NCBI GenBank assembly: GCA_024638765.1
Contig: JAHEJT010000004.1
Location: 174 to 64,173 of the forward strand
DNA: 64,000 bases
Direction: 5' to 3'
Source: Verrucomicrobiales bacterium
GTDB taxonomy: Bacteria; Verrucomicrobiota; Verrucomicrobiia; Verrucomicrobiales; DEV007
Under the pieces are notes generated by a model. It did not search any database and was not told the DNA's origin. It saw only the letters and a list, made by a program, of their open reading frames with translations. A program made the translations under genes and the position numbers. Below are positions 30,586 through 64,000 of this stretch, piece after piece (positions within the stretch are counted from its first letter, which is position 1; each line of letters begins with the position of its first letter).

Positions 30586-30602
30586 GGCGACTTGATTCTG
30601 CT

Positions 30603-31163: not shown

Positions 31164-31181
31164 GATGATCGATGAGTTAAA

Positions 31182-31751: not shown

Positions 31752-31772
31752 AGCGTGATTGCCAATTGTGCT

Positions 31773-32642: not shown

Positions 32643-32643
32643 T

Positions 32644-33702: not shown

Positions 33703-34005
33703 CGGTGGCTCAGCAGAGGAACCCGGGACTCCACGTAGAGGGATCCGGCGGGGCGGACGTGGGATACAGGGTGTGGAAGGGTTTGTTAGATTCTATGGTA
33801 ATTATGAAAAATTTGGCAATCTTTGCTTATCAAATTAATCTAGTTCACCTCTTTATTATGGATTTTTATTATAGAGTGAGTCAATACAAATTGATAGTTT
33901 TTTTTATCATAAACATATTTTTCCTTTATCAAAGTGGGAATTTCATGATATATAAATCTTTAACTTGTTCTAATTACATCTGAAGATCTCGAGAAGCTGA
34001 GTATC
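33703..34005. promoter_or_regulatory. Sharply AT-rich divergent control region between the PilT-led operon and the secretin gene
   Basis: From about 33780 to 33990 the sequence is dominated by A/T runs, unlike the flanks. There is a perfect TATAAT on the minus strand (33873..33868). On the plus strand, TTGATA-17-CATATT lies at 33891..33919. Confidence 0.5.
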
Positions 34006-42113: not shown

Positions 42114-42119
42114 TTTTCG

Positions 42120-43166: not shown

Positions 43167-43246
43167 TCGGATCTCCCCGAAAACCCCTTCCCCTCAGCAT
43201 TTCCCTTGCATTGATAACCTTGCTCCGCCAACTCCACCGGACACGC

Positions 43247-47578: not shown

Positions 47579-47789
47579 TGTGGTGTCCCGGAAATAATGT
47601 GACATGGGGCGCGAGTAATTTTTTTCAAATTCGAGGCGCGAGGAGGTCGCGGAGCCCGCTCCGCGACCAACGAGCGACGAAGAGGTTGGGAAAAAGGGCC
47701 GCGCATTCTTAATCAATGCGAGCGAAGCGAGGTGATTCTAAAATCGTTCAATACTTTTTATGTTGCAGGATTTCCGGGACACCCCGCTA
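47576..47789. repeat. 20-nt inverted repeat (18/20 match) whose two arms each begin with the TAG stop codon of a convergent gene
   Basis: 47576..47595 is TAGTGTGGTGTCCCGGAAAT. The reverse complement of 47770..47789 is TAGCGGGGTGTCCCGGAAAT. A 10-bp-stem hairpin GGTCGCGGAG-CCCG-CTCCGCGACC lies inside at 47645..47668. Confidence 0.8.
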
Positions 47790-49283: not shown

Positions 49284-51580
49284 TTCACCTCCTCCTCGAT
49301 CACCGCTTCGCCCTTCTTGAACATCACCACCCGCGGCACTGCCTTTTTCCCAAGCCCTCGGAAGTAGATGTCACTCCCCTCTCCTCTCAGCCGAACCGTG
49401 CGCCGCAATTTCTCTCCGTCCGCGCTCGGCGAAAGGGTGTCTTCGACCTGCAGGCCGTCGAATGAATAGAGAAACGTCGGCACGCCGCCGGCATCCAGCC
49501 GGAATCCTCCGAACTCATAACCCGCTTCCGCTCCCGTGCCTTCCGGCCACGCGGTTTCCGCAGTCTCGAGGCGCGCCAGCGGCATCCACAACGGAAATTC
49601 ATTCACCTCGTCGCCCAGCGGCCTGGCCGGAGTCGCTTTGCGTTCGTCCCAGGTGCTCATGGCATCCAGAAACCGGCCGCGCCACGCGATGGCCCAGCGG
49701 ATTTCAAGGGAATCGAAGGCGACATGAACCCCTGCCGGGTAACCGGTGGTGACCGCCTGCATTCCCGCGCCTTCGAGGAAGGTGCGAAAGACGATCGGTT
49801 CCTGGTCCGGCACCAGTTCAAAATCTTCGGTCTTCAAGAGTCCTTCCGGGAGACGGCGCTGATCGATTTCTTTCAAGTAAGTCCAGATTTGTTCCACTTC
49901 CTCTTCGGCTTTTTTCCGACCCAGGAACAGCGGCGGCATCAGGGTCCCCGGCAGGACGCCCTGGGGATCGAGCAGCAATTCTTTGAAGAACCCGGGCTGG
50001 AGCCGGTTCACGGTGTGCGTCAGGTTGATCGCCGGCGCCCCCAAGGCCTTGGCATCTTTGAGCCCGTGACAAGTGATGCATCCCAATCCGTCGGCCCCGA
50101 GCAAATCCCGGCCGTAATGCCCCCGCTGATGACGTTGCAGTCCGCTGACGTCCATCTCCATGGCAGGCTCGCGCACGTCCGCCGCCGCAAAGCCTGCCGT
50201 CAGCGCACTGACGTTGGCTTCACCGAACGCGGGCATCCGCACCGTCATGTGGGGACGCACCTCACCCCCCTCTCCGAACAGTATCTTCTCCATCCATGAC
50301 CGGGTCAGCTTGCGGCCCACGTGGGTCAGGGAAGGCGGGATATTTCCGAAGTCACCGAGTGAGATCGCAGCGGAGTCAGTCACCCCGAAATAGGCGGCCC
50401 GGGCCAGCTCCGCCCCGCCTTTCCCGTCGCGCGCATGGCAGGCGTAACAGTTGAGTGCGGTCATCACCCGGTCGACGCGCTCCCCGGGTGCGAGCGTCAT
50501 GCGTCCCGCCGGCTTTTTCAGCTTCCTCAGCGCCAGGGTAATGGCTTCCCGCTGGATATAATCGAGGTAATAAAAAGGAATACCCCCGGCCAGAGGTCTC
50601 TCCGAAAGACAACTCCTCTCCGCCGCGGGATCGAGGGCCTCCAGATGCTTGGTCGTCGCCGGGACCGCCCCGGCGCCACTCTTATCAGTCCCCGCGTCGT
50701 GACACGCCACGCAATTCTTTCTCGCGAACACTTTTTCTCCCTCTGCGGCCAGCGCCGGATCGAGCACAAATTCCGGCTCCGTTTCTTCCTCGGCGGGCCA
50801 GCCGGCCTGCAGGTATTTCGCCACGTCAGCGGCTTCCTGGGCGTTCAACTTCATGTCCGGCATCCTGCCCGCGGGACGCACTGCCAGGGGATCCTGCAAA
50901 AAAGCCGCCAGGGCCGCCTCGTCATAGAGATAGGCCATCGCAAGGGGAACCGAAGGAAAACCGGGTAATTCCGGTTCCGTGCCGGGTGGAAAACTTTTGG
51001 GTACGTAACCTTGTTCCACATCGTGACAGGCCACGCATCCCACCTCGTGATAAATCTCTTTGCCCCGCTCGACGTCGCCTGCGGGTAACGGCTCGCGTTT
51101 CAATCCCTTCCGCGAAGCCAGAAAATGGGTGAGCGCTTCGATCGCATCAAGATCCCGGTCCGGTCCGCCGAAGAGACTCGGCATGGTCGTACCCCGCTTC
51201 ACGAAGCGCGGGTTGCGGGCCATCAAGCGAAGATCCGCCGGCTCCAGCCGCTCTCCCACCGAGTGCAGCAGCGGTCCGCTTTTCCCGGGCAATCGCGCGC
51301 GCAAAGATTTATCCTTGGGACGGTGACAAGCGACGCAATTGAGTTCGTTGAGCAGCAGTTCACCGCCCTGCGCCAGGTAATCTTCGCTGTCTTCCTGGAT
51401 GTAGAAATTTTCGAAGCCAGCGACGACAGGGTATTCGATCGATTCAAGGGCATGCGTCGGATGCGCGTCGACAGCGCCCGGTAAAACGAATGCGATCCCC
51501 GTCGCGCAGACAAGAATCCTCGCGACCGGCAAGAGGAAAATCCGCGCCGGATACCGCGTGCTCCGTCCCATCCGCGCCAT
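49277..51580 (-). CDS. Multihaem c-type cytochrome (five CXXCH motifs)
   Basis: CVACHRP, CVACHDV, CVACHDA, CYACHAR, CITCHGL. N-terminal signal/anchor. Confidence 0.85.
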   Translation of the reverse strand: MARMGRSTRYPARIFLLPVARILVCATGIAFVLPGAVDAHPTHALESIEYPVVAGFENFYIQEDSEDYLAQGGELLLNELNCVACHRPKDKSLRARLPGKSGPLLHSVGERLEPADLRLMARNPRFVKRGTTMPSLFGGPDRDLDAIEALTHFLASRKGLKREPLPAGDVERGKEIYHEVGCVACHDVEQGYVPKSFPPGTEPELPGFPSVPLAMAYLYDEAALAAFLQDPLAVRPAGRMPDMKLNAQEAADVAKYLQAGWPAEEETEPEFVLDPALAAEGEKVFARKNCVACHDAGTDKSGAGAVPATTKHLEALDPAAERSCLSERPLAGGIPFYYLDYIQREAITLALRKLKKPAGRMTLAPGERVDRVMTALNCYACHARDGKGGAELARAAYFGVTDSAAISLGDFGNIPPSLTHVGRKLTRSWMEKILFGEGGEVRPHMTVRMPAFGEANVSALTAGFAAADVREPAMEMDVSGLQRHQRGHYGRDLLGADGLGCITCHGLKDAKALGAPAINLTHTVNRLQPGFFKELLLDPQGVLPGTLMPPLFLGRKKAEEEVEQIWTYLKEIDQRRLPEGLLKTEDFELVPDQEPIVFRTFLEGAGMQAVTTGYPAGVHVAFDSLEIRWAIAWRGRFLDAMSTWDERKATPARPLGDEVNEFPLWMPLARLETAETAWPEGTGAEAGYEFGGFRLDAGGVPTFLYSFDGLQVEDTLSPSADGEKLRRTVRLRGEGSDIYFRGLGKKAVPRVVMFKKGEAVIEEEVKW

Positions 51581-51588
51581 GCCTCACT

Positions 51589-52167
51589 TCAGGCAGCCAC
51601 GCTGGCGGCCTCGCGCGCTTCCTCCAGTAGCTTGATCCAAGGGCCGATGAAGTGCCCGTGATCGTGAAAAGTGCGGCCGCTCACCAGGTTCCCGTCGATG
51701 ACGCAGGACTCGTTGACGAAGGTCCCGCCGCAGATCTCTAGATCGAACTGGCATTTCGGCACCGTGGCCATCCGCCGGCCCTTGACGCAATCGGCGCGCG
51801 CCGGAATTTCCACCCCATGACACACACTTGCGGCGGGCTTGTTCTTCTCAAAGAAATGCCTGGTGATCCGGATCAGATCCTCGTCGTCCCGGATGTATTC
51901 CGGCGCCCGCCCGCCGCTGAAGAAAATCCCGAGGTAATCGTCTTCGACGACATCCTTGAAGGCGATGTCGGCTTCAATGGTATACCCTTCCCACTCCTTG
52001 GTGATCGTCCAGCCCGGTTTCACTTCGTGCATCACCATCTGGTAAAGGCGCTGTTCCGGAGCGGCCACCACCGGCTCGAAACCGGCCTCGATCAAACGAT
52101 AGTAGGGATACAGCGTGTCCACGGTCTCCGTGGCATCCCCGACAATGATCAGGACTTTCTCGCTCAT
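51589..52167 (-). CDS. DJ-1/PfpI-family protein
   Basis: 192 aa. Nucleophile elbow AASVCHGVE. No signal peptide. Confidence 0.8.
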   Translation of the reverse strand: MSEKVLIIVGDATETVDTLYPYYRLIEAGFEPVVAAPEQRLYQMVMHEVKPGWTITKEWEGYTIEADIAFKDVVEDDYLGIFFSGGRAPEYIRDDEDLIRITRHFFEKNKPAASVCHGVEIPARADCVKGRRMATVPKCQFDLEICGGTFVNESCVIDGNLVSGRTFHDHGHFIGPWIKLLEEAREAASVAA

Positions 52168-52189
52168 AACTTATCTATAACACAGTTGC

Positions 52190-53107
52190 TCACGCCTGTT
52201 TCACCAAATTCTCCAGGTAATTCCGCGACCGGTTAATCTCCGCGGTGATCGCTTCGGCGCTATCAAGGATCGGAATCCCTCGCGGCACCGGGTGCATGAA
52301 TATCTCGGTAAACCCGCGGTAATCGATTTTCTTGAGAGCCTCTACGAGGGGATTAAAGTCGAGATCGCCCCGCCCCGGCATTTGCAGAAGCTCCTGCGCC
52401 TTGGGCAGCTGTTCTTTCGAACCCATTCCGTGCTGCTGCGCGTAAAAGAAAGCCGTCTTGTCACCGAGCGTTGCAATCAGTTTCCCCTGCATCTCCCCGT
52501 CCTGCGGCAGATGATGCGGTGCAAAGGCAATGCCCAGGTGTTGCGAAGTCGCGTGCTCCGCGAACCACTTCATGGAATCGGGACTGCTGACCAGGCTGTT
52601 CGCGTGGTTCTCGACGGCGATCGTGACGCCGTGCGCCTCCGCCACCGCCACGTGCGGCTGCATTTTTTTGCAAAACTCGGCGACCGCCTTCTTCAATTCC
52701 GCGCCCTCGAGACCCTTGGGACCCCGGGAACCACACACCATGACCGGGCATCCGAACCGCTTGGCCACCGGCATCTCTTCCTCCAATCCAAACGGCCCGA
52801 GATTGTAATGCGTGAGCACACCCAACTTGACATCGTGCTCCTTCAATAGGGCTTCAAACGCATCCAGCCCCATCTCCGTAATCTGCTCTCGCTGGTTCCC
52901 ATGCTTCAACGGCCAGATGTCGATGTGCCCCGCCCCGACCTTGCGCACTTCCGGCAGGATCTCCGCCAGCGGCATTGTCCCGAACATGGCCGACGAGAGA
53001 ATGTAGCGCAGGGAGAAAGTGTCGGGCACTCCCCGGAGCTGCGATGGACCCCCCAACGTGGAGGCGCTTCCCAACGCGAGAGTTTGCAGAAAATGACGGC
53101 GATTCAT
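52190..53107 (-). CDS. TAT-exported xylose-isomerase-like TIM-barrel protein
   Basis: MNRRHFLQTLALGSASTLGG. AVENH. The RBS-like sequence AGGAGGAG lies upstream. Confidence 0.75.
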   Translation of the reverse strand: MNRRHFLQTLALGSASTLGGPSQLRGVPDTFSLRYILSSAMFGTMPLAEILPEVRKVGAGHIDIWPLKHGNQREQITEMGLDAFEALLKEHDVKLGVLTHYNLGPFGLEEEMPVAKRFGCPVMVCGSRGPKGLEGAELKKAVAEFCKKMQPHVAVAEAHGVTIAVENHANSLVSSPDSMKWFAEHATSQHLGIAFAPHHLPQDGEMQGKLIATLGDKTAFFYAQQHGMGSKEQLPKAQELLQMPGRGDLDFNPLVEALKKIDYRGFTEIFMHPVPRGIPILDSAEAITAEINRSRNYLENLVKQA

Positions 53108-53191
53108 AATCGGACTCCTCCTATAAACGAGACGAGAATAAGAAATCTTTCGCTCTCAATCCACGCATAATTTCTACTCGGCCGACGCAAA

Positions 53192-53235
53192 CCCCTGACA
53201 TAACTTGTTACAATTATAACAAGTTATGTCAGGGG
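53192..53235. promoter_or_regulatory. 44-nt near-perfect palindrome between the sulfatase stop and the TIM-barrel operon
   Basis: CCCCTGACATAACTTGTTA-CAATTA-TAACAAGTTATGTCAGGGG: 19-bp arms plus an AATT core, with one mismatched pair. It could be a terminator hairpin, an operator, or both. Confidence 0.6.
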
Positions 53236-53237
53236 CG

Positions 53238-55031
53238 TCACTTCCCTCCCGTGGAGTCCACTTTCCGCAACCAGATCCCATTGAGCCGCATCAACTCATC
53301 CCCCGGCACTTCCACGGCTTCCGCCACGAGCAAAACCCGGCCCTCGGCCAGTTGCAACGTCCCCACCTTCTGCCTTCGAAACACTTCCGGCGTCGCCGTC
53401 GCCCGCACGCGGTGCTCGACGAAATTTCCGTCCGCGGAAATTCGCAGTAATCCCCCCGCATCACTGAATCGGCAGCCGTATCGAATGAGGATCTCGTATT
53501 CGCCTCCGCCCCGGACATCCAGGTTCCATTCGGCTCTCTCTCCCGGCGATTTCCAACCCTCGATCGTGTCCCAGTCATACCCCTGGAAATTGTATTCAAT
53601 CGCGTCCCCGTGCCAGGTCGCCCAGCTCGCTTGAATCTCGACCGGGTTCTCCTCCGGATGACCCACCGGCACGGCAATGGGGCGGTATTCCACCCCCTGC
53701 GTCACTTCCTTAAACCACCGAAGGAACTCTTCGCGCAATCTTTGCACGGTCTCTGGATTCTTTTTTGCGATGTTCGTTTCTTCTGAAGAATCTTTTTCAA
53801 GATCGAAGAGCATCCACTTTGCGGGATCCGGCGTCCCGCCGGTCCCCACCTGGCCCAGCAATTTGTAGCGTTGATCGCTGATCGACCAGCGGTTGTCCGG
53901 GTTCGGAACATACCGGTCCCAGGTGTGATACACATAATCGTGGTGCTTTTTCCCTTTCCCCGCCACCAGCAACGAAAGGAGACTCACGCCGTCGAACTCC
54001 CGGTCCGTGGGCAAATCGACGCCTGCAAGTTCGCAGAGAGTCGGCATGATATCGACGTGCCAAGCCTGGCCGGAGACCACTCCCCCCGCAGGAAACTTGC
54101 CGGGCCAACGCACGAACAGCGGACTCCGCACGCCGCCTTCGTAGACTTGGGCTTTGTTCCCGCGGATGCCTGCCTTGAAAAATTTGCTGACCCCTCCGTT
54201 GTCGCTCATGAACAACACCACGGTGTCTTCTTGCAGGTCGAGCTCCTCGAGCCGGGCCAGGATCCGGCCGATGTTCACGTCGACCCGGTCGACCAGCGAA
54301 TAAATGCGGGCCTCGCGCAGAGGCAGTCCGCGCCCCAGGTATTTCTCGAGGATCTTGTCCCCTTCCGGCTGCCCGTAATGCGAGGTATCGAGAATCCACG
54401 GCGAGTGCGGCGCGTTAAAAGCCAGCACGCAGAAAAAGGGATCCTTGCCGCTCTCCGCGATGAAATCCCCGGCGGCATCTGTGAACAAATCGCTGACATA
54501 ACCCCGGGCCTCCACCGGCCTGCCATTCTCGACGATCTGATCGGGAAACTCGTATCTCTCCATGTGTCCGTGGTAATGCCCGAGGAACCGGTCAAATCCC
54601 CGTTGGTCGGGTTGATACCCGTAATACTTCCCGAGGTGCCACTTGCCGAATAATCCCGTCCGGTATCCGGCTTTTTTCAGAAGCTGGGCCACCGTGATCT
54701 CGCCGATCCCAAGGGTATCCCCGCCGAAACGCGTGTTGTAGAGCCCGGTCCGCAGGTAATAGCGTCCGGTCATCAATCCCGCCCGCGTCGGGGCGCACAC
54801 CGGTGCCGCGTAAAATCGCGAAAAGCGCACGCCCTCCCTTGCCAATCGATCCATGTGCGGCGTGTCGATGTGGGGATTTCCGGAGACACCCGTGTCCCAC
54901 ACCCCTTGGTCATCCGTGATGATGAGGAGAACGTTCGGCTTGGAACCGCACAGATCCTCGGCGCGAGCGATCGACGCGGAAGCAATGCCTAGAGCTGAGA
55001 AAAGAATCCCGACGCTTAGACGGAAATACAT
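53238..55031 (-). CDS. Arylsulfatase (Cys-type) with a C-terminal beta-sandwich-like extension
   Basis: ORF 53238..55157 trimmed to ATG 55031 (MYFRLSVGILFSALGIASASIARA). LLIITDDQG, CAPTRAGLMTGRY, GKWHLG, MSDNGG. Confidence 0.9.
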   Translation of the reverse strand: MYFRLSVGILFSALGIASASIARAEDLCGSKPNVLLIITDDQGVWDTGVSGNPHIDTPHMDRLAREGVRFSRFYAAPVCAPTRAGLMTGRYYLRTGLYNTRFGGDTLGIGEITVAQLLKKAGYRTGLFGKWHLGKYYGYQPDQRGFDRFLGHYHGHMERYEFPDQIVENGRPVEARGYVSDLFTDAAGDFIAESGKDPFFCVLAFNAPHSPWILDTSHYGQPEGDKILEKYLGRGLPLREARIYSLVDRVDVNIGRILARLEELDLQEDTVVLFMSDNGGVSKFFKAGIRGNKAQVYEGGVRSPLFVRWPGKFPAGGVVSGQAWHVDIMPTLCELAGVDLPTDREFDGVSLLSLLVAGKGKKHHDYVYHTWDRYVPNPDNRWSISDQRYKLLGQVGTGGTPDPAKWMLFDLEKDSSEETNIAKKNPETVQRLREEFLRWFKEVTQGVEYRPIAVPVGHPEENPVEIQASWATWHGDAIEYNFQGYDWDTIEGWKSPGERAEWNLDVRGGGEYEILIRYGCRFSDAGGLLRISADGNFVEHRVRATATPEVFRRQKVGTLQLAEGRVLLVAEAVEVPGDELMRLNGIWLRKVDSTGGK

Positions 55032-55044
55032 CACGCCTGTCCTG

Positions 55045-55132
55045 ATTCGCGCTAATTCGTGCTCATTCGTGTTCATTCGTGTCAGAAAATCTTTAAACAC
55101 GAATTTTACGAATTCCACGAATGGCCACGAAT
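55045..55132. repeat. Inverted arrays of the heptamer ATTCGYG / CACGAAT (4 + 4 copies, 9-10-bp phasing) in the 5' leader of the sulfatase gene
   Basis: ATTCGCG, ATTCGTG, ATTCGTG, ATTCGTG start at 55045, 55055, 55065 and 55075. CACGAAT, TACGAAT, CACGAAT, CACGAAT start at 55098, 55107, 55116 and 55126. Confidence 0.9.
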
Positions 55133-55170
55133 AAAAAGAGGCTCCCCGCGCCAGCAAATCCCAATAACGA

Positions 55171-56142
55171 TTAACGAATCACCCCCTCCACATCCAGGAT
55201 CTGGGAGTTCGGCACCGAATTTCCGAAGGTCTCGAATTGATCGAAGGTCCACACCACCTTCTTCGTCCTCGGCTCGATCTCCACCAGCAACGGATTCTCC
55301 GGCCCGGCGTGGCAATTCCCGATGACATAATTCCCATTGGGCAACACTTCGAGCGTCGTGACCCAGGCGAACTGAATCTCCTCCAGGTCGTCCTGGTGCA
55401 GCTCCCAGACGATCTCTTTTGCGGGCGTCACTTCGATGACACTGTGCCCGTTCCCCGTGGCAATGACGGTGTTTCCGGTGGGCAACCGCAGGGCGCTGAA
55501 GCACTGGTTGCCGAATCCCTCGACCCCATGCCCCTTGGCCGGTTCCTTTCCGAACATCGGCACCTCGTATTCCCAGACCACTTTACCGGTCTCGCCGTGG
55601 TATTCGCGCACCTTGCCGTCGCCCTCATGGCAAACCAGGTAATTCCCGTTGGCAATTTTTCTCACCAGGCGCGTGTCCCGGTGTGGGTGCGGATCATCGA
55701 TCACGAGCTTGATCGTCTTCTGAATCTCTCCCTCGCGATTGATCTCGATGATCCTGCCCGCGCCGCTCTCGGCGATCATGATGTGACCGTCCCCAAGGGG
55801 CTGAAAGGCGTGCACCTCGATCTTTTTTCCCTGGTTGCCGTTCATCGTGGCGCTGTCGTAACTCCAGACCACCTTTTTGGTCGCGGGATCGATCTCCACC
55901 ACCTTGCGCATTTTTTCCTGCACCATGATGTGCCCGTCCGGCAGGACGTGGATATCGTGAATGCCGCCCCAGGGCATCTCCCACTCGATCTTGCCGCCGG
56001 CATCGACAATCGCCAGCTTGCCGTTGCCGCCGGTGATGAGGCGGTGTCCGGCGGCAGCGGGAAGAATTCCCGTCAAAAGAAAAACGAGGATCAGCACCGG
56101 AGCCGGAAATCTGAAAAGGCGCGGCAACGAAAATACATGCAT
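55171..56142 (-). CDS. Secreted beta-propeller repeat protein (PQQ/BamB-like fold is a guess)
   Basis: ORF 55171..56538 trimmed to ATG 56142 (MHVFSLPRLFRFPAPVLILVFLLTGILPAAAG). Repeated blade-like segments (GKIEWEM, KKVVWSY, GKVVWEY, KEIVWEL, KKVVWTF). Confidence 0.65.
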   Translation of the reverse strand: MHVFSLPRLFRFPAPVLILVFLLTGILPAAAGHRLITGGNGKLAIVDAGGKIEWEMPWGGIHDIHVLPDGHIMVQEKMRKVVEIDPATKKVVWSYDSATMNGNQGKKIEVHAFQPLGDGHIMIAESGAGRIIEINREGEIQKTIKLVIDDPHPHRDTRLVRKIANGNYLVCHEGDGKVREYHGETGKVVWEYEVPMFGKEPAKGHGVEGFGNQCFSALRLPTGNTVIATGNGHSVIEVTPAKEIVWELHQDDLEEIQFAWVTTLEVLPNGNYVIGNCHAGPENPLLVEIEPRTKKVVWTFDQFETFGNSVPNSQILDVEGVIR

Positions 56143-56516
56143 GGGATCAGGCGGGGTTGGGATCTCGAGGGGCAGGGATGAATCCGGGTTTCCGCTTCTA
56201 CACATTCGCCTTCGAAATTCCAACGATTTAAGATTCCTGCTTCTCGACCACACACGCCCCCCTGGGGATCGGGAAAATCGAGCTGACGGACCACCGCGCG
56301 CTCCCCGGATTCCTCTGTGAAGCCCATGCGCTGGAAAGCCGAGGAGATCTCTCACCTGGGCAGCTGGCGGAATTTGACCAAATAAGCTCGGAAACAGGCA
56401 GTTCCCCCCGATAAGACCAATGCCGGGCCCAAAATTGAACGAATAATCATACTTGAAAAAATTGCGTCTTAATACCATACTTCGCCCCGGGACCCGGGGG
56501 AGGAATACCTCAGACT

Positions 56517-56532
56517 TGGCACATCCATTGCT
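56517..56532 (+). promoter_or_regulatory. Sigma54 (RpoN) -24/-12 promoter match, TGGCAC-N5-TTGCT, upstream of the porin gene
   Basis: cTTGGCACatccaTTGCTctg. The GG and GC are at canonical spacing, about 75 nt upstream of ATG 56606. Confidence 0.55.
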
Positions 56533-56605
56533 CTGCAATGGGCTGTCCAGCTTGGCTTGTCAGGGCCAGCCGGTTTCACACTCAATTAAATCAGAAAAAC
56601 ACATA

Positions 56606-57421
56606 ATGATTACAAGAACCCTAACTTCAGTGGCCGGCCTTGGTCTTGCTTCGCTCCTTTTTGTGAGCACTGCCTTCGCAGGCGAATCCGCCTCAACCAG
56701 CGGCTATGGAAAAGCCCCCGCCTACGGCACCGGCGCAGCCATGCCCGCAAGCACCGACTCCGATTTCCCGCTCTACGGCGGAGTATCGCTCGGCTACGAA
56801 ACCCACTACATGTTCCGTGGGGTCAACCTGGGAGAGAACGCTCCCTGGGGGGAGATTGACCTCAACTACGATCTCACCGAAACCCTGTCGCTGAACTTCG
56901 GGGCTTGGTACATCAATCCGACCAGCGATGTCGGGGGCATTAATCCCACCGATGAACTCGACGTCTACGGCTTCCTTATCTTTCCCATCGGAGACCTCAG
57001 CGTCAGCGTGGGCATGACCGCTTTCTTCTTCCCGGAGGTGGACGGGGACAGCCAGGAATACGGCATCGCACTCGGATACCCGATCGGTGACCTGTTTGAT
57101 CTCGGCTTCGAATATTGGGCAGATGCCAATGCCAAAGGCCCTGATGCCTTCGGACATTACTTCGAGTTGAACGGCTCCAAATCCATCGAGTTGAGCGATG
57201 TCATTGCTCTCAACCTTGGCACGGGTGTCGGCTTCGGCGAGAATTACTTCGGTGTCTCCGGTTGGAACCACGTCTTCGCTCTCGGGGGTTTGAGCTTTGC
57301 GCTCACGGACACCGCCGCGCTCGACCTTTACGTCGGTGGCAACTGGCCGGTCGGAGACCTCAAGGACTTCGGAGAAAAAGATCGCGTGCACGGTGGCGCC
57401 AGTATCTCCGTTTCCTTCTAA
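56606..57421 (+). CDS. Outer-membrane beta-barrel porin-like protein (TorF-type is a guess)
   Basis: ORF 56453..57421 trimmed to ATG 56606 (MITRTLTSVAGLGLASLLFVSTAFA). Alternating beta-strand pattern, YMFRGVNLG motif, C-terminal Phe (ISVSF). Confidence 0.65.
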   Translation: MITRTLTSVAGLGLASLLFVSTAFAGESASTSGYGKAPAYGTGAAMPASTDSDFPLYGGVSLGYETHYMFRGVNLGENAPWGEIDLNYDLTETLSLNFGAWYINPTSDVGGINPTDELDVYGFLIFPIGDLSVSVGMTAFFFPEVDGDSQEYGIALGYPIGDLFDLGFEYWADANAKGPDAFGHYFELNGSKSIELSDVIALNLGTGVGFGENYFGVSGWNHVFALGGLSFALTDTAALDLYVGGNWPVGDLKDFGEKDRVHGGASISVSF

Positions 57422-57462
57422 TTGATCTCAACTCACGGTTGTCGAGTAGACCTCTTATTCCA

Positions 57463-57496
57463 GCCCGTCCCGCCGCAAAGCGGGGCGGGCTTTTTT
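57463..57496 (+). terminator. Rho-independent terminator between convergent genes
   Basis: GCCCGTCCCGC-CGCAAA-GCGGGGCGGGC (11-bp stem with one G-U pair) followed by TTTTTT. Confidence 0.8.
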
Positions 57497-57547: not shown

Positions 57548-59824
57548 TTACTTACTCTTGCCCATCTGCCGTATCCACTCGGTGACCAATTCGAGCCCCT
57601 TCTCGTCCACCCGGTCGCTTCCGATCAAGGGCATCTTCCCTGGCCCGCGCGTCGCCATGCGCCGCCAGATCTCCGAGCGCTCCGGTTGTCCCGGCGCGAT
57701 GATCCGCGCATCCTCCACTCCCGGCAGCCCCACCACCGGCCTGGCGCCGACGGCTCCCGTCTCTTCCAGCGTCAACCAGCGCAGCAACTGAAATTCCGCC
57801 CGCCCGCCCAGGCCCGTCTCCCGGTGACAATGCGCGCAGTTGACATGCAGATACGTCCGCACCCGCTCGTCCAGCGAGGCGCTCTCATCGCACGGAGCCA
57901 CCGAGCGCGGCCATTCCCCACGCACCTTAGGCAGCTTCTTCCCCTTGAAAAAACCCAGGCTCGAAAACGTCTCCAACTGGTTTCCCTTGCTCCCTCCGAT
58001 CGCATGGTAGTCGAAATCCCGGTTCAGTTGCCCCATATTCATTCCCAGCACAAAAAAAGAACGGTGCGTGTGACAGGCTCCGCACTCGGCCCGGCTCATG
58101 AATCGCCATTCCCGGTCCCCGATCTTCCGCGTCTCCCCGGCCTCCGGGACCAGCACCGCATCCTCCTGATTCTCGCGCCACCGGTAAGTGTAAAAATGCC
58201 ATTCCTCCGCCTCATTGAAACTCACCTGCGTTTCCACCCGCCTCTTTCCCCCTCGCGCCTTTGCATCCGGAAGATAATACGTTTGCATAAAGGCGCTCCC
58301 GCCCAGGAAACGCCATCGATCGAGCCCCGCCGCGCGCGTGCCCGCCGCCTCGATATCGAAATCCGGCATTCCCGGCGGTTTTTTCTGCACCTGGATGGAG
58401 GCATCGGCCGGCATCGCAAAAAATCGCTCCCGCTCCATCCCGTCCCACCAGGCCGGCGCGTTGAGATCGTAGGGTATCACTCCCGATTCGATTCGATGCG
58501 CCGCGGTCGACGCAAAAAGACCGGTCTCACTCAAGAGACGCGGCACCGGGCGATAAACCTGTTGCTCAGATGGCCGCGCCAGCCGCAGGACCGGCCCGTC
58601 CAGCGGTAGCACGTAAACTTCGCCCTCGCCGTCCCCGGCAAAGGAAACCACCTGCAGCCCCGCATCGGCCAATCTTCGCGGCTCCCCCGGCGTATCGCCA
58701 TCCACGGGGACCGACCACACCTTCTTCGTGACGTAACAACCGTAAAGATAATGTCCGCGCAATTCCGGGAACTTTTCTCCCCGATAAAAAAAGCCCCCGA
58801 TCACCGAACGCATTTCCGTGTGGGGATGCTCGACCGCCGGAGGCGTCAGTCCCCGCACCGGTCCGCCCAGGCCCGTGCGCGTGCGAAACGGATGACTGCC
58901 TTCAAACGCGCTCCACCCACCGTTATCCCCGCGCCGGAGCCGGCGCACCATTTCCCAGTGCTCGTCCCCGTTGTCGCCCAACCAAATCTCTTCGTGGTCC
59001 GGACGAAAGGTCATTCTCCACGGATTACGCAATCCATACGCCCATACTTCCGGCCGCACACCGGGCATGCCGACGAACGGATTGTCATCGGGAATCCTAT
59101 ACGGCGTCGCTTTCCCCGCACGATCCACGTCGATGCGCAGAATCGAACCCAGCACATTATCGACCGTTTGTCCCACGTTCCCCGGGTCACCCGGCGATTC
59201 GCCATCCCCGGTCGACAGATAAAGAAAGCCGTCGGGACCGAACTTGAGATCGCCCCCGGCGTGGCCCCGGCCTCCCCATTCCAGGAGCACCTCCTCGGTT
59301 TCACGATCGGCGCGCGGTGGATCTCCGACGGACACTTGGAAACGCGAGAGCCGGTTAATGCGTTCTCCGTTATCAAAACGGGAATTGTAACTCACAAATA
59401 CCGTGGGGTCACGCGGGTAATCCCGGTGGAACGCCACCGCGATGATGCGAATAGGGAGCTTGTTAGGCGCTCTTGATCCCGTCGCTTCGCCTCCACCTAA
59501 GCCCAAAAACAGCACTCGCTCCGCCGCGTCCGGTGCGTTGACAAAGGTCCAGAGTTTTCCCGCGAGCTCCGCCAACAGGAATCGCACATTATCACCGGCT
59601 CCCGGCACGACCGCCAGGTAGATCGGGGCATCCATCTCCAGATCCGGAAACGCCTCCACGGTCACGAACGGAAGCGGCGCGTCCCCGGTGCCTTCGAGTT
59701 TTGATGAATCCCAACGCGGAAATTCCGTCAAACCGGAAGCGCCATGCACGCCGGAAATCGTCCCCAGCAATGCCAGCAAATTCGAAAGGAAACAAAGGAC
59801 CGGCCGCGGCCCGCGACAATTCAT
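57548..59824 (-). CDS. Soluble glucose/sorbosone-dehydrogenase-like beta-propeller fused to a C-terminal haem-binding region (two CXXCH)
   Basis: ORF 57548..59902 trimmed to ATG 59824 (MNCRGPRPVLCFLSNLLALLGTISGVHG). GLRNPWRM propeller motif. CGACHTH and CAHCHRE. Confidence 0.75.
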   Translation of the reverse strand: MNCRGPRPVLCFLSNLLALLGTISGVHGASGLTEFPRWDSSKLEGTGDAPLPFVTVEAFPDLEMDAPIYLAVVPGAGDNVRFLLAELAGKLWTFVNAPDAAERVLFLGLGGGEATGSRAPNKLPIRIIAVAFHRDYPRDPTVFVSYNSRFDNGERINRLSRFQVSVGDPPRADRETEEVLLEWGGRGHAGGDLKFGPDGFLYLSTGDGESPGDPGNVGQTVDNVLGSILRIDVDRAGKATPYRIPDDNPFVGMPGVRPEVWAYGLRNPWRMTFRPDHEEIWLGDNGDEHWEMVRRLRRGDNGGWSAFEGSHPFRTRTGLGGPVRGLTPPAVEHPHTEMRSVIGGFFYRGEKFPELRGHYLYGCYVTKKVWSVPVDGDTPGEPRRLADAGLQVVSFAGDGEGEVYVLPLDGPVLRLARPSEQQVYRPVPRLLSETGLFASTAAHRIESGVIPYDLNAPAWWDGMERERFFAMPADASIQVQKKPPGMPDFDIEAAGTRAAGLDRWRFLGGSAFMQTYYLPDAKARGGKRRVETQVSFNEAEEWHFYTYRWRENQEDAVLVPEAGETRKIGDREWRFMSRAECGACHTHRSFFVLGMNMGQLNRDFDYHAIGGSKGNQLETFSSLGFFKGKKLPKVRGEWPRSVAPCDESASLDERVRTYLHVNCAHCHRETGLGGRAEFQLLRWLTLEETGAVGARPVVGLPGVEDARIIAPGQPERSEIWRRMATRGPGKMPLIGSDRVDEKGLELVTEWIRQMGKSK

Positions 59825-59990
59825 CCACCCATTAAACGAGTCCGCGCCCCACGGCACAAGCGGAATGCAGCGCGTCTCGCCATGTCCGGAAAATGGTCTC
59901 AATCCACAATTCTAATGCTTGGCCTCGAAGCGCTCCCTGTTGTATACCGGAGATTCTTCTTCCCCTGAACACTCCTAAAGAAATCGAATC

Positions 59991-60899
59991 ATGACCGCTC
60001 ACAATTTCTCCCGCTTCCTCGGAACCGCCCTCCTGGCCGCCTTCTCTCTCATTCTCCTCAACCCGCCCGCCATCGCCGCGGAGAAATCCAAGAAAGCAGG
60101 CAAAGCTCCGCCGGCAAATCCGGCACCCAAAAAACATCCCACCGGTTACACCGACACGCCGTTCCTGCCCGGCGACAAATGGCGTGTCCACGACGACACC
60201 CGGCCCCGGCCCAAGGTGGTCACCCCCGGCCCGGGATACGGCGCCCCTCCCGCGGATGCCATCGTCCTCTTCGGCGGCACCGACCTCTCCCAGTGGCGGA
60301 AGTCCAACGAAGCCGCCAACGACTGGATCATCCGGGACGGGTACATGGAAGTCCCGCCATCAAAGAAAGATCCCAACAACCCGAAGAAAACCATCAAGGG
60401 CGATCTCTTCACCAAGAAAAAATTCGGCGACATCCAGCTGCACATCGAGTGGGCCGCGCCGGCGGAGGTCGTCGGCGATTCGCAGGGCCGCGGCAACAGT
60501 GGCGTCTTCTTTTGCGACGGCGTCTACGAACTGCAGGTCCTCGATTCCTACAACAACAAGTCCTACGCAGACGGCCAGGCTTCGGCCCTCTATGGCTGGA
60601 AGCCTCCCCTGGTGAACGCATCCCGCAAGCCCGGCGAGTGGCAGACCTACGATATTGTCTGGGAAGCGCCACGCTTCAAAAAAGACGGCAAGCTGGTCAA
60701 GAAAGCGCACATCACCGTCCTGCATAACGGCATCGTCACGCACAATCGCCAGGAATACATCGGCGCCACGGGGCACAAGAAAGTCGGCGAATACAAAGCC
60801 CATCCCCCAAGAGGCAGCCTCAAGCTCCAGGACCACAACAATCCCATGCGATTCCGCAATATCTGGGTGCGTGAACTCGATTTGAAGGCCAACGAGTGA
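59991..60899 (+). CDS. DUF1080 (PF06439, 3-keto-disaccharide hydrolase-like) jelly-roll protein, secreted
   Basis: Signal peptide, then GDIQLHIEWA, NSGVFF, YELQVLD, GEWQTYDI, LKLQDHNNPMRFRNIWVREL. Confidence 0.8.
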   Translation: MTAHNFSRFLGTALLAAFSLILLNPPAIAAEKSKKAGKAPPANPAPKKHPTGYTDTPFLPGDKWRVHDDTRPRPKVVTPGPGYGAPPADAIVLFGGTDLSQWRKSNEAANDWIIRDGYMEVPPSKKDPNNPKKTIKGDLFTKKKFGDIQLHIEWAAPAEVVGDSQGRGNSGVFFCDGVYELQVLDSYNNKSYADGQASALYGWKPPLVNASRKPGEWQTYDIVWEAPRFKKDGKLVKKAHITVLHNGIVTHNRQEYIGATGHKKVGEYKAHPPRGSLKLQDHNNPMRFRNIWVRELDLKANE

Positions 60900-61612
60900 G
60901 CGAAGGGCATAGTGACACAGGCGTCTCGCCTGTGTTTGGTGGCAGACACAGGCAGGATGCCTGTGCTGCATTAGCCTTCCTACTCATCGGAGCCGCCGCC
61001 CTATCGAGTGTCGCCGGCGACCACCCCTGGACCCCGCTCTTTGACGGGTGCACACTCAACGGCTGGCAAGGGCACCGCGGAGAAACCACCCATTGGATCG
61101 CCCGGGACGGCGTCCTCGCATGGACCGGCGGCGATGGCGCCCGGTTGCTCGCGACCGAGAAGGTGTTCTCGGACTTCGAACTTCATCTGGAATTCAAATA
61201 CGCCCCCGGAACCAACAGCGGCGTGTTCTTCCGCACCCCCCTCACTTCGGGAAGACCGGCCTTCGATGGAAATGAATTCCAGATCGTCGACGAAGCCGCC
61301 CCGGAATTCGCGGAGAAAATGACCGATGACCGCCGCATGGGCGCCCTCTACGCCGTCCAACCGCCCGCCCCCAGCGTCGAAGCGCCCCCCGGAAAATGGC
61401 ATCGCCTTCGCATCCGCTGTGAGGGCAGCCGTCTCCTCGTCCGGCTCAACGGCCAAACCATACTCGAGACTGATCTCTCTTCCTATCCCGCGAGTATTCA
61501 AGAGGAACATCCCGGTCTCTCCCGACGAAATGGGCATATTGCGCTGCAGAGCAAACCCGGCTCCAAGATAGAATTTCGCAACATCAAAGTGGCATCGGTG
61601 TCGAACCCATGA
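60896..61612 (+). CDS. Second DUF1080-family protein
   Basis: WTPLFDG..LNGW, FELHLEFKY, NSGVFFR, EFQIVD, GALYAV, GHIALQSKPGSKIEFRNIKV. GTG 60896 overlaps the upstream stop. In-frame GTG 60932 gives a cleaner signal peptide, MFGGRHRQDACAALAFLLIGAAALSSVAG. Confidence 0.75.
   Translation: MSEGHSDTGVSPVFGGRHRQDACAALAFLLIGAAALSSVAGDHPWTPLFDGCTLNGWQGHRGETTHWIARDGVLAWTGGDGARLLATEKVFSDFELHLEFKYAPGTNSGVFFRTPLTSGRPAFDGNEFQIVDEAAPEFAEKMTDDRRMGALYAVQPPAPSVEAPPGKWHRLRIRCEGSRLLVRLNGQTILETDLSSYPASIQEEHPGLSRRNGHIALQSKPGSKIEFRNIKVASVSNP
60915..60965. repeat. Two tandem REP-like hairpins: ACACAGGCG-TCT-CGCCTGTGT and CACAGGCA-GGA-TGCCTGTG
   Basis: 9-bp and 8-bp stems. The first shares TGACRCAGGCGTCTCGCCTGYG with 11368..11390. 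They overlap the 5' coding region of the next gene. Confidence 0.8.
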
Positions 61613-61629
61613 CTTTCAGCAATCTCGCC

Positions 61630-61650
61630 CCCTCTCCCCCGGGGAGAGGG
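61630..61650. repeat. GC-rich palindrome CCCTCTCCCC-C-GGGGAGAGGG downstream of the DUF1080 gene (REP-like / terminator hairpin)
   Basis: Read directly; followed by CTGGGGTGAGG. No T-tract. Confidence 0.6.
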
Positions 61651-61711
61651 CTGGGGTGAGGAGAAGCCGAATTGGGAAATGTCATTTGTCACCTAACCAT
61701 CCCGCCAACTC

Positions 61712-63088
61712 ATGCAAATCGAAAATCATAAATCGGAAATCGAAAATTCTCCGGCTCTCCCCCGCCGCGATTTCATGCGCGGCGCCGCCGCAGCGGCCGT
61801 CGGAGGCGCCCTCACGAAAGTCGCCATCCCCCGCGTCCACGCCGCCGGCAGCGACGAACTCAAAATCGCCCTCATCGGGTGCGGCGGCCGCGGCACCGGC
61901 GCCTGTGTCCAGGCCTTGAGCACCGATGGGCCCGTCAAACTCTGGGCCATGGCCGACGCCTTCCCGGACAGCCTCGAGAAGAGCCATCAAAATCTTCTCA
62001 AGGGCGCTTCCTTCAGCCGTTCGGAAGATGCCGGACCGCAGACCAGCAAGATGGACGTCCCGCCGGAACGCCGCTTCGTCGGCCTGGACGCTTACCGCAA
62101 AGTGATGGCGCTCGAGGAAATTGACGTCGTCCTCATCACCGGACCTCCCGGCTTCCGCCCGATCCATTTTGACGCTGCCGTCAAAGCCGGCAAACACGTC
62201 TTCATGGAAAAGCCCGTCGCCGTCGATGCGCCGGGCATTCGAAAAGTCCTCGCGACCGCCGCGAAAGCGAAAAAGAAAAACCTCAAGGTCGGCGTGGGCC
62301 TGCAGCGCCGTCACAGCCCCCTCTACCGCGAGTGGATCCAACGCGTCCAAGCAGGTGAAATCGGCCGCATCATTACAGAACGCATCTATTACCTCGGCCG
62401 CGGTGTCGGCAAGTATTACGCACGTAGTCCCGAGGATACAGAACTCGAATACCAGATCCGCAACTGGTATTACTTCACCTGGCTTAGCGGCGATCACATT
62501 GTCGAGCAGCAGATCCACCAGTTCGATGTGGCCTGCTGGATGAAAGACCAGTATCCCGTGTCCGCCCAGGGTCAAGGTGGCCGAGAAGTCCGCACCGGAA
62601 ATGATTACGGCCAGATTTACGATCATCACAACGTGGATTTTACTTTCGCTGACGGCACCCACCTCATTACCCAATGCCGCCACATTCCCGGCTGCTGGAA
62701 TCACCAGGGCGAATACGTCGATGGAAGCAAAGGCACCGGTGCAATGATCTCGAAACGGGCGGCAACTCTCCGCCTCTGGGAACAGGAACAACCGTTCTGG
62801 CGCGACACGCTCGAAGAAAATCCTTACCAGATCGAACACGACGACCTCTTTGCGGCGATCCGCAACGATAGGCCTTATAATGAAGCCGAATACGGCGCAA
62901 AAAGCAGCATGGCCGCCATTCTCGGGCGCATGGCCACTTACTCCGGGAAAGTTGTCACCTGGGATCAAGCCATAAATTCGGATGTGTCTCTCGGCACCGA
63001 CGCCGAGCGTTTCGACGCCCCCGCGCCCATCCAACCCGGCGATGGAGACTATTACCCCGTCGCAATCCCAGGATCTACGGAAGTGTGA
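61712..63088 (+). CDS. TAT-exported Gfo/Idh/MocA-family oxidoreductase
   Basis: RRDFMRGAAAAAVGG twin-arginine signal. Rossmann motif IALIGCGGRG. FMEKP. Confidence 0.85.
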   Translation: MQIENHKSEIENSPALPRRDFMRGAAAAAVGGALTKVAIPRVHAAGSDELKIALIGCGGRGTGACVQALSTDGPVKLWAMADAFPDSLEKSHQNLLKGASFSRSEDAGPQTSKMDVPPERRFVGLDAYRKVMALEEIDVVLITGPPGFRPIHFDAAVKAGKHVFMEKPVAVDAPGIRKVLATAAKAKKKNLKVGVGLQRRHSPLYREWIQRVQAGEIGRIITERIYYLGRGVGKYYARSPEDTELEYQIRNWYYFTWLSGDHIVEQQIHQFDVACWMKDQYPVSAQGQGGREVRTGNDYGQIYDHHNVDFTFADGTHLITQCRHIPGCWNHQGEYVDGSKGTGAMISKRAATLRLWEQEQPFWRDTLEENPYQIEHDDLFAAIRNDRPYNEAEYGAKSSMAAILGRMATYSGKVVTWDQAINSDVSLGTDAERFDAPAPIQPGDGDYYPVAIPGSTEV

Positions 63089-63155
63089 TCGACGGTCTCG
63101 TCCGCCTCCAGGTAGAGTCATCACTCATCCGCGCGACAAAGCCGCGCCCTGACAT

Positions 63156-64000
63156 ATGCCCGCACCCATTCGCTTCGGTCTCATCGGCTTCGGCCGCTTT
63201 GGCAAAAACCACGCCCGGGCCATCGCGCACACCGAGGGCGCGGAACTCGTCGCCATCGCGGCACGCTCGCCCGGGTCTTGCAAGGAAGCTGAGGCCGCAC
63301 ACCCCGGAGTCGCCACTTTCACTGATTTCCGCGACATGCTCGCGCGTGACGATATCGATGTCGTCGATGTCGCCGTGCCCACGCACCTGCACTTCGAGTG
63401 CGGCAAGGCTGCCCTGGAGTCCGGTAAACACCTCTTCATCGAAAAACCCATGGCGCCCACCGTCGCCGAATGCCGGGAACTGATTCGGTGCGCCGAGGAG
63501 AAAAACCTGAAGCTCGTGGTCGGATTCAAACGCCGCGTCGCCCACCTTTGGAAAGGCGTCAAGGAACTCGTCGACAAAGGAGTCGTCGGGACACCCCAAT
63601 ACGCCGTCTTCGAACTCTGGCGCTGGCCTTATCGGCAGGGCTCCGGGGGCTGGCGTTACGACATCGACCGGGTCGGCAGCTGGGTGCTTGAGGAACCGGT
63701 CCATTGCTTCGATAAAGCGCGCTGGCTGCTCGGCCCCGCCCTCGGGGAACCGGAATCCGTTTTCGCGGCCGCCAGTTCACGGCAATCCGGGCATCCGGAG
63801 TTACAGGATAATTTCTCCGCCATGCTCAACTTTCGGGAGGGCTGTCACGCCGTGGTCACCCAAACCCTCAGTGCCTGGGGTCACCATCACGGCTTGAAAT
63901 TGACCGGGACCGAGGGCGCGATCCTCGCAAAATGGGACGGCGCTACCGACGACGCCCTGCCAACCTCCTCCCTGCACTACATGCACAGCACGACGCGCGA
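63156..64000 (+). CDS. Gfo/Idh/MocA-family oxidoreductase, 3'-partial (runs off the window); absent from the supplied ORF track
   Basis: My own translation from ATG 63156 gives MPAPIRFGLIGFGRFGKNHARAI...DVVDVAVPTHLH...LFIEKPMA..., open to nt 64000 with no stop. No signal peptide. Confidence 0.8.
   Translation, partial: MPAPIRFGLIGFGRFGKNHARAIAHTEGAELVAIAARSPGSCKEAEAAHPGVATFTDFRDMLARDDIDVVDVAVPTHLHFECGKAALESGKHLFIEKPMAPTVAECRELIRCAEEKNLKLVVGFKRRVAHLWKGVKELVDKGVVGTPQYAVFELWRWPYRQGSGGWRYDIDRVGSWVLEEPVHCFDKARWLLGPALGEPESVFAAASSRQSGHPELQDNFSAMLNFREGCHAVVTQTLSAWGHHHGLKLTGTEGAILAKWDGATDDALPTSSLHYMHSTTR

Follow-up and report, generated by a model that had tools for sequence, protein, structure and literature searches.

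Introduction

Does the oxidative route by which some gut Bacteroidota cleave glycosides also operate in bacteria of the Planctomycetes-Verrucomicrobia (PVC) group? The question is raised by four genes at positions 59991-64000 of a 64-kb stretch of contig JAHEJT010000004.1 from a Verrucomicrobiales bacterium (hereafter the window, with about 48 genes); two of the four encode DUF1080 proteins and two encode Gfo/Idh/MocA dehydrogenases, one of them bearing a twin-arginine translocation (TAT) signal. We conclude that the four genes form an operon-like cluster, and that this cluster is probably an uncharacterised, sequence-remote relative of a known pathway type. The more specific proposal, that it encodes a periplasmic oxidation-elimination-hydration route of glycoside cleavage analogous to that of BT2157-BT2159/AL2-AL4, has in our judgement an even chance of being correct. 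DUF1080 and Gfo/Idh/MocA proteins are among the most expanded families of Planctomycetes and Verrucomicrobia, and their roles there are almost undescribed. If the proposal is true, the non-Koshland glycoside cleavage of gut Bacteroidota also takes place in PVC bacteria from the environment, themselves major degraders of complex glycans, and the locus would offer a compact candidate for biochemistry: four genes, two types of DUF1080 protein and no TIM barrel. We regard it at present as a reasonable assignment at the level of annotation rather than a discovery, and one that would not surprise a specialist.

The known systems come mainly from two studies. Growth on trehalose and other disaccharides requires BT2157-BT2160; of these, BT2157 is a DUF1080 protein that acts on 3-keto-trehalose, BT2158 a Gfo/Idh/MocA protein with a TAT signal and, by analogy with glucose-fructose oxidoreductase (GFOR), a proposed tightly bound cofactor, BT2159 a second Gfo/Idh/MocA protein and BT2160 a regulator (Liu et al. 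2021, PMC8121099). In the systems of Nasseri et al. (2024, 10.1101/2024.03.25.586180), AL3/BT3, the TAT enzyme, uses non-exchangeable NAD to oxidise C3, the TIM barrel AL1/BT1 acts as a 3-keto-beta-glucoside 1,2-lyase, and AL2 and BT2, of the DUF1080 family, are characterised 3-keto-glycal hydratases; the cytosolic dehydrogenase is dispensable in vitro, and the cofactor is probably recycled by reduction of 3-keto-glucose. DUF1080 proteins have also been linked to periplasmic cleavage of 3'-ketolactose in Caulobacter (Price et al. 2022, PMC9007349). Our literature searches returned no publication describing a 3-keto route for PVC bacteria or for sulfated substrates.

The four-gene cluster

We analysed the region 59991-64000, in which the last gene (GFO2) is cut by the window end at 64000. 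Pfam domains were called on the open reading frames (ORFs) of the whole window, and the curated NCBIfam cut-offs were taken to define equivalog membership.

59991-60899, + strand: DUF1080_1, 302 aa, PF06439 (E 2.4e-39), Sec-type signal MTAHNFSRFLGTALLAAFSLILLNPPAIAAE
60896 or 60932 to 61612, + strand: DUF1080_2, short PF06439 protein (E 2.6e-44), hydrophobic signal-like N-terminus
61712-63088, + strand: TAT Gfo/Idh/MocA dehydrogenase (the TAT enzyme), 458 aa, PF01408 and PF22725, weak match to the TAT-signal model
63156-64000, + strand: GFO2, Gfo/Idh/MocA dehydrogenase (E 2.5e-32), N-terminal 282 aa visible, signal-less

The initial annotation of the window had placed two DUF1080 genes beside a TAT-exported and a second Gfo/Idh/MocA gene, and all four are present where it put them. 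The four ORFs lie close together on one strand, with intergenic gaps of -4 (or 32), 99 and 67 nt, the first value depending on whether DUF1080_2 starts at GTG 60896, overlapping the stop of DUF1080_1, or at GTG 60932, which is the database gene call. A search for a convincing terminator within the cluster found none. No other DUF1080 or Gfo/Idh/MocA gene was found in the window, and by our own post hoc arithmetic the chance that four specified genes among about 48 would be contiguous is about 2e-4. The two DUF1080 proteins share 28% identity and the two dehydrogenases 25%, and neither pair therefore represents recent duplicates; a recent tandem duplication of the DUF1080 gene was rejected for this reason. 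An antisense ORF at 61682-63124 was without any support and was taken as spurious. No regulator gene was seen in the visible part of the cluster, the window ending inside it.

The arrangement resembles that of BT2156-BT2160/AL1-AL5, where adjacent genes running in one direction likewise encode one TAT and one signal-less Gfo/Idh/MocA enzyme together with exported DUF1080 protein(s); here PF06439 genes with signal-like N-termini, two of them, stand directly upstream of the TAT dehydrogenase. Unlike those loci, the window cluster has no TIM-barrel beta-lyase gene and has two divergent DUF1080 genes instead of one, and the host belongs to the PVC group, not to Bacteroidota. The Caulobacter crescentus system of LacABC with CCNA_01705/CCNA_01698 (PMC9007349) offers a second possible analogy, in that periplasmic oxidation at C3 precedes DUF1080 action and each region has two DUF1080 genes, but its oxidase is of the membrane-bound FAD/cytochrome type rather than a TAT Gfo/Idh/MocA protein.

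The DUF1080 proteins

DUF1080_1 is a PF06439 beta-jelly-roll protein with a predicted signal for Sec export, and is a candidate 3-keto-glycoside lyase/hydratase. It matches Protein Data Bank (PDB) entry 4qhz, a function-unassigned structure of P. distasonis BDI_3914, with E 9e-57, and its orthologues are 60-71% identical, those with a source name all coming from Verrucomicrobiota. For DUF1080_2, the AlphaFold2 model (mean predicted local distance difference test score, pLDDT, 84) had AL2 as its first Foldseek match (8v31, E 1.3e-15, template-modelling score, TM, 0.73), and the BT2 entries 8tda, 8rr2, 9fbe and 3osd were among the best matches; the model superposes on BT2/AL2 at a TM of about 0.7. 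DUF1080 structures of no characterised function match the model equally well, and family CBM66 and lectins also resemble the fold.

Conserved residues of BT2 have been given as E103, N134, E164, Q166, Y190, K245, Q273 and H275 (10.1101/2024.03.25.586180). To map them we used the BT2157 PDB sequence over the N-terminal two thirds and, for the C-terminus, motif register. The motifs GNSGV, YELQ, ALYG and LQDH of DUF1080_1 match N134, E164/Q166, Y190 and Q273/H275, respectively; DUF1080_2 keeps TNSGV, NEFQ and ALYA, with LQSK standing for LQDH. Thus N134, E164, Q166, Y190 and Q273, five of the eight positions, are kept in both proteins. The Lys of DUF1080_2 replaces the His that in BT2 contacts the sugar 2-hydroxyl. 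It is shared with the 64% identical orthologue at L001:1140-1859 (here and below, L numbers are labels of loci carrying relatives) and with 0/27 others; among 29 aligned relatives LQSKP occurs only in these two, and the others have LQDH or LGH.

The two dehydrogenases

At the N-terminus of the TAT enzyme a hydrophobic stretch comes after the twin-arginine motif PRRDFMRGAAAAAVGG (PRRDFMRG). Across 54 aligned homologues, conservation is 90% or higher at R18, R19 and F21, and the EKP motif (residues 166-168) and E265-x3-H269 are invariant. We consider 61712-63088 a candidate gene for a periplasmic glycoside dehydrogenase with a bound nicotinamide cofactor. Over 8000 homologues were found, the best named ones from Planctomycetota and Limisphaerales, and the enzyme belongs to a large clade of its own that has no characterised member.

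Comparison with characterised enzymes gave generic results. By sequence, PDB matches were short, the best being inositol dehydrogenase (1e-11, about 100 residues), and AL3 (8tdf) reached only E 0.005. The AlphaFold2 model (pLDDT 87) gave Foldseek matches that all fell between E 1e-21 and 1e-19: aldose-aldose oxidoreductase, 1,5-anhydrofructose reductase, inositol dehydrogenases and GFOR, together with NAD-dependent sulfoquinovosidases and the P2B11 glucuronide 3-dehydrogenase. The best NCBIfam score of the TAT enzyme was for inositol 2-dehydrogenase (83 bits, cut-off 355), and both window dehydrogenases score somewhat higher on inositol dehydrogenase models than on the BT_2158 and BT_2159 models, with every one of these scores far below its cut-off. 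Orthologues of GFO2, at 314 bits, adjoin relatives of the TAT dehydrogenase in two loci, L106 and L086.

Gene neighbourhoods in relatives

Scans of GTDB genomes and JGI metagenomes yielded no relative of the TAT enzyme above 57% identity, and only two closer relatives were found by other routes, L001 (84%) and L165 (70-75%). Exact look-ups with the TAT enzyme of the window itself retrieved no record. L001 keeps the order DUF1080_1, DUF1080_2, dehydrogenase; downstream of the dehydrogenase it has a peptidase_S15 gene and then a major facilitator superfamily (MFS) sugar transporter in place of GFO2. L165 has the order propeller-cytochrome gene, a 796-aa gene, DUF1080_1, then an apparently decayed DUF1080_2 and dehydrogenase: at L165:6998-8035 (GCA_973530875.1) both orthologues have large internal deletions, so that only residues 46-103 and 176-236 of DUF1080_2 and 63-132 and 395-458 of the dehydrogenase align. 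Either gene decay or assembly collapse would account for these deletions.

For the wider sample, GTDB genomes and JGI metagenomes supplied 163 more loci (45-57% identity); their ORFs were scored with purpose-built hidden Markov models that we spot-checked with Pfam, and the set was then de-duplicated. We compared a closest group of 15 de-duplicated relatives (at least 500 bits to the window TAT enzyme) with a distant group of 107 relatives, and used as an internal control the gene density within 3 kb of the dehydrogenase against that beyond 3 kb in the same loci.

DUF1080 within 3 kb of the TAT enzyme: 6/15 closest, 5/107 distant (Fisher p = 4e-4)
TIM barrel within 3 kb: 5/15 closest, 18/107 distant
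Dihaem cytochrome c protein with a formylglycine-generating enzyme (FGE)-like domain within 3 kb: 0/15 closest, 55/107 distant
DUF1080 density, closest group: 0.91 per 10 kb within 3 kb, 0.11 beyond (8-fold)
TIM-barrel density, closest group: 0.65 per 10 kb within 3 kb, 0.11 beyond (about 6-fold)
Sulfatase density, closest group: 0 per 10 kb within 3 kb, 0.33 beyond

In a neighbour-joining tree of the family, which was built without support values, the window enzyme belongs to a group, about 35 leaves in size, from which the cytochrome-FGE partner is absent and in which dehydrogenase-TIM, dehydrogenase-TIM-DUF1080 and dehydrogenase-DUF1080 arrangements are common. A TIM-barrel gene lies directly downstream of the dehydrogenase in L008, L009, L027 and L106; the first three have the order dehydrogenase, TIM barrel, DUF1080, and in L106 dehydrogenase and TIM barrel are followed by GFO2, a ROK-family regulator being transcribed divergently upstream. 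L086 has its GFO2 orthologue on the opposite strand, 270 bp downstream of the TAT enzyme. All four modules of the BT/AL systems therefore recur around this dehydrogenase clade, with their combinations shuffled.

Distant TAT dehydrogenases have a different commonest neighbour. At L036:2358-4154 and in about 66 related loci (e.g., L049, L083 and L079), two PSCyt1 c-haem domains are fused to an FGE-sulfatase-like domain; the gene lies directly upstream of the dehydrogenase on the same strand, often with a TAT-signal TIM barrel next, and the pairing spans Planctomycetota, Verrucomicrobiota and Bacteroidota. This PSCyt1-FGE protein may serve as electron acceptor for the periplasmic dehydrogenase. 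We found no literature on the triad of PSCyt1-FGE protein, dehydrogenase and TIM barrel.

Proposed route and the evidence for it

We infer the chemistry, its regiochemistry and the class of substrate as follows. The TAT dehydrogenase would be exported folded, with non-exchangeable NAD(P), and would oxidise an oligosaccharide or glycoside at the 3-hydroxyl of its non-reducing-end sugar. Either or both of the DUF1080 proteins would then expel the aglycone or next sugar by 1,2-elimination and hydrate the ensuing 2-hydroxy-3-keto-glycal to a 3-keto sugar. The bound cofactor would be re-oxidised by reduction of the 3-keto sugar, and the proposed cycle would therefore be redox-neutral; cytoplasmic GFO2 would reduce keto-sugar after import. 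It is tempting to speculate that the two DUF1080 proteins split the alpha- and beta-lyase roles that in Bacteroides are held by a DUF1080 protein and a TIM barrel.

Our observations themselves cover gene content, export signals and folds, together with a partial conservation of the active site and a neighbourhood enrichment at the level of the clade. The proposed route is supported by a module composition and predicted compartments that parallel those of the characterised system, and by the raised density of DUF1080 and TIM-barrel genes beside the closest relatives of the TAT enzyme. Further points in its favour are the fold matches of the DUF1080_2 model to AL2 and BT2, the BT2 positions kept in both DUF1080 proteins (with H275 kept in DUF1080_1), the gene order of L001, the arrangements of L008, L009, L027 and L106, and the TAT signal conserved in the family. 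The initial annotation had also read the genes as a 3-keto-glycoside route, and its reading is partly supported; against it stand the equivalog cut-offs, which were missed, and the TIM barrel, which the cluster lacks.

Several observations weigh against the proposed route. Unlike BT2158 and BT2159, the window dehydrogenases are remote from the respective families: the TAT enzyme scored 36.3 bits on NF058561 (BT_2158_fam; cut-off 750) and so falls outside that equivalog, and GFO2, from an incomplete gene, scored 53 bits on NF058563 (BT_2159_fam; cut-off 650). AL3 was missing from the top 50 Foldseek matches of the TAT enzyme, and the sequence and model-based fold matches of this enzyme are generic and do not discriminate among regiochemistries. 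DUF1080_2, unlike BT2, is a short form with Lys at the position of H275 (DUF1080_1 has His there); E103 of BT2 sits in a loop missing from DUF1080_2, and K245 is not alignable. Within the immediate sub-clade of the window enzyme a DUF1080 gene was found only in L001. Searched outward from the DUF1080 proteins, the picture differs: orthologues of DUF1080_1 (60-68%) adjoin NHL-repeat or unknown genes, relatives of DUF1080_2 (about 38-41%) adjoin NamZ or unrelated genes, and most have no dehydrogenase beside them, the only exception being L165 with its dehydrogenase remnant. The association therefore holds from the dehydrogenase side only.

The missing TIM barrel is a further difficulty. None was found within 59991-64000, a cluster cut at 64000. 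The window as a whole does contain the two TAT-exported and one cytoplasmic xylose-isomerase-like TIM barrels that had been annotated:

52193-53155, - strand: TIM barrel, PF01261, TAT signal
18078-19196, - strand: TIM barrel, PF01261, TAT signal
10591-11358, + strand: TIM barrel, PF01261, without signal

These had been taken as a sign that the route is repeated across the window, a claim that comparison does not support, and their properties again count against the proposed route. They lie 8-50 kb from the cluster in other gene contexts. No two of them share more than 24% identity, none exceeds 28% identity to any TIM barrel found beside the related dehydrogenases, and their best matches are mostly not adjacent to a dehydrogenase. 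By sequence, the protein of 52193-53155 had no PDB match at E <= 0.01.

Alternative explanations

The TAT enzyme could instead be of the GFOR or aldose-aldose oxidoreductase type, performing redox-neutral chemistry at C1 of free monosaccharides, or a polyol enzyme resembling inositol dehydrogenase, with the DUF1080 proteins being carbohydrate-binding or unrelated and merely co-regulated. The Foldseek ranking fits this, since the Caulobacter aldose-aldose oxidoreductase, 1,5-anhydrofructose reductase, inositol dehydrogenase and GFOR are at the top; so do the 83 bits for inositol 2-dehydrogenase against 36 for BT_2158_fam, and the resemblance of the DUF1080 fold to CBM66 and lectins. Zymomonas GFOR and the Caulobacter enzyme are themselves TAT-exported Gfo/Idh/MocA proteins with a tightly bound cofactor, export with bound cofactor being a hallmark of GFOR as well (PMC8121099). 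However, both work on C1 of free sugars, lack DUF1080 or TIM-barrel partners and are only 15-18% identical to the window enzyme; the family scores are far below cut-off, and the fold scores equal those of 3-dehydrogenases. Nor does this explanation predict the enrichment of DUF1080 and TIM-barrel genes beside the nearest clade, or the retention of most BT2 active-site positions in both DUF1080 proteins. We consider it unlikely, though by no means fanciful.

Alternatively, the DUF1080 proteins could be endo-glucanases in an ordinary hydrolytic polysaccharide locus, with the dehydrogenases processing the freed sugars. The model would be THTE_1561 of the planctomycete Thermogutta terrifontis, a 23.7-kDa DUF1080 protein reported to hydrolyse several beta-glucans, lichenan and xanthan (Denisenko et al. 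2021, cited in the review PMC10881899; PMC9007349). It resembles the window proteins as a small exported DUF1080 protein of a PVC bacterium but differs in being claimed as a stand-alone hydrolase with no dehydrogenase partner. DUF1080 genes are expanded in Planctomycetes and induced by xanthan (PMC5673643), and the frequent lack of a dehydrogenase beside DUF1080 relatives fits this explanation too. Against it, the reported specific activities of THTE_1561 are low and its production host was a cellulolytic fungus, a point that we raise as a caution only; BT2/AL2 by themselves did not act on simple glucosides that had not been oxidised (10.1101/2024.03.25.586180); and the operon link to a TAT dehydrogenase would be left unexplained. 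A GH16-type hydrolase reading of the DUF1080 proteins was also rejected, because the catalytic motif (E-x-D-x-x-E; searched as E-[ILV]-D-[IVAF]-[VILMF](0,1)-E and even as the loose E.D..?E) has no match in either protein. We find the endo-glucanase explanation improbable.

A third possibility is that there is no functional unit at all and that two families, both expanded in PVC genomes, became neighbours by lineage-specific accident. Most relatives of each component are indeed found in other contexts, and the DUF1080_2 and dehydrogenase orthologues of L165 look decayed. The tight spacing, the single direction and the possible start/stop overlap argue otherwise, as do the gene order kept at 84% identity in L001 and the 8-fold (DUF1080) and about 6-fold (TIM barrel) higher densities near the dehydrogenases of the closest clade. 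An accident therefore seems to us quite improbable.

One could also envision a composite in which PVC bacteria have an oxidative clade of their own: the His-to-Lys DUF1080 protein would replace the TIM beta-lyase, sister-clade dehydrogenases would be wired to the dihaem cytochrome c-FGE-like protein, with net oxidation feeding respiration in place of a redox-neutral cycle, and the present cluster would act downstream of sulfatases on desulfated marine or soil glycans. We regard this combination as a long shot.

Sulfatases, haem proteins and other genes of the window

The initial annotation had further envisaged a variant for sulfated glycans with dedicated electron-transfer modules. The four cytochrome- or cupredoxin-linked propellers on which it drew were all identified:

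4566-9353, - strand: sulfatase-haem fusion of sulfatase, DUF7133, HEAT repeats and a CxxCH domain
39255-42119, - strand: cupredoxin-linked propeller with DUF7133, HEAT repeats and a cupredoxin domain
47787-49370 with 49277-51583, - strand: pair of propeller and multi-haem protein
57548-59902, - strand: propeller-dihaem cytochrome c, PF07995 (E 9.8e-36); TIGR03806 192 bits, below the 313-bit cut-off

That a window-wide system exists in which sulfatases prepare the substrates and these propellers re-oxidise the dehydrogenase, coupling it to respiration, is very improbable, since sulfatase genes occur within 3 kb of the dehydrogenase in 0/15 of the closest relatives and 8/155 overall, no denser than farther out, and the sulfatase and haem genes of the window all lie in other transcription units. 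In its favour are the presence of three sulfatases and four haem or cupredoxin propellers in one window, the divergent propeller-dihaem cytochrome next to the cluster with its synteny in L165, the dihaem cytochrome c-FGE-like protein as the commonest neighbour in sister clades, and the mention of cytochromes as possible re-oxidants by Nasseri et al. (10.1101/2024.03.25.586180). Yet the known route requires free 3- and 4-hydroxyls (10.1101/2024.03.25.586180), and the window has no cytochrome c-FGE gene, which we looked for. A distance of 4.8 kb separates the cluster from its nearest sulfatase (53238-55178), which belongs to another gene run on the opposite strand, and nothing supports a link of the cluster to sulfatases. 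Nor, to our knowledge, is there an obvious one-electron path from hydride-carrying NAD(P)H to haem.

The haem proteins are, moreover, not specific to the cluster. TIGR02604 (PVC-type heme-binding CxxCH protein; cut-off 122) is passed by 39255-42119 (206 bits) and 4566-9353 (137 bits) and matched below threshold by a third haem protein, and TIGR02603 is present (107 bits, cut-off 68); both are generic PVC paralogue families, and the idea of dedicated electron-transfer modules has no support. Taken with the type II secretion/pseudopilin cluster at 19.8-36 kb, these haem families assign the organism to the PVC superphylum. Sulfatases and PVC-type haem proteins are described as large paralogue families in that superphylum (PMC6388578). 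Literature searches on DUF1080 with sulfatases and on cytochrome c-FGE/dehydrogenase pairs returned nothing relevant. The only hints of an electron-transfer link are the sister-clade cytochrome c-FGE partner and the divergent gene 57548-59902. This gene, an uncertain member of the system, encodes a glucose/sorbosone-dehydrogenase-type propeller joined in one protein to an SO2930-type dihaem cytochrome c; in L165 an orthologue with 58% identity stands upstream of DUF1080_1, with one 796-aa gene between.

Other features of the window are recorded here in their own right. The gene 4566-9353 (- strand) is a single stop-to-stop ORF of 1595 aa, with the sulfatase at aa 101-530, the TIGR02604 propeller at aa 592-953, HEAT repeats and a C-terminal TIGR02603 match; unless it is a sequencing artefact, such a sulfatase-cytochrome fusion is unusual. 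The abutting or overlapping genes of 47787-56559 (- strand) are operon-like and encode a PQQ_2-type propeller, a sulfatase, a TAT-signal TIM barrel, a DJ-1/PfpI protein, a multi-haem cytochrome c (SoxX-like match) and a DUF7133 protein; this is the only place in the window where a TIM-barrel gene abuts a sulfatase gene. The gene at 56603-57421 (+ strand) encodes a protein with a signal peptide and a high content of Gly, Tyr, Phe and Asp; this protein has no Pfam or NCBIfam match and could be an outer-membrane beta-barrel. Behind the gene, at 57462-57491, comes a hairpin terminator of 12 pairs (10 GC), the one strong example in the region, at which transcription of both convergent genes could end.

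Scans of the window for tRNA genes and Rfam families gave no match. A GDSL lipase gene at 42123-43193 (- strand) and a sulfotransferase gene at 42800-43984 (+ strand) overlap on opposite strands, both with Pfam support. The carbohydrate-related genes are divided into two halves by a type II secretion/pseudopilin cluster at 19797-35970, which encodes two T2SS-E ATPases, a T2SS-F protein, several N-methyl prepilins and a secretin.

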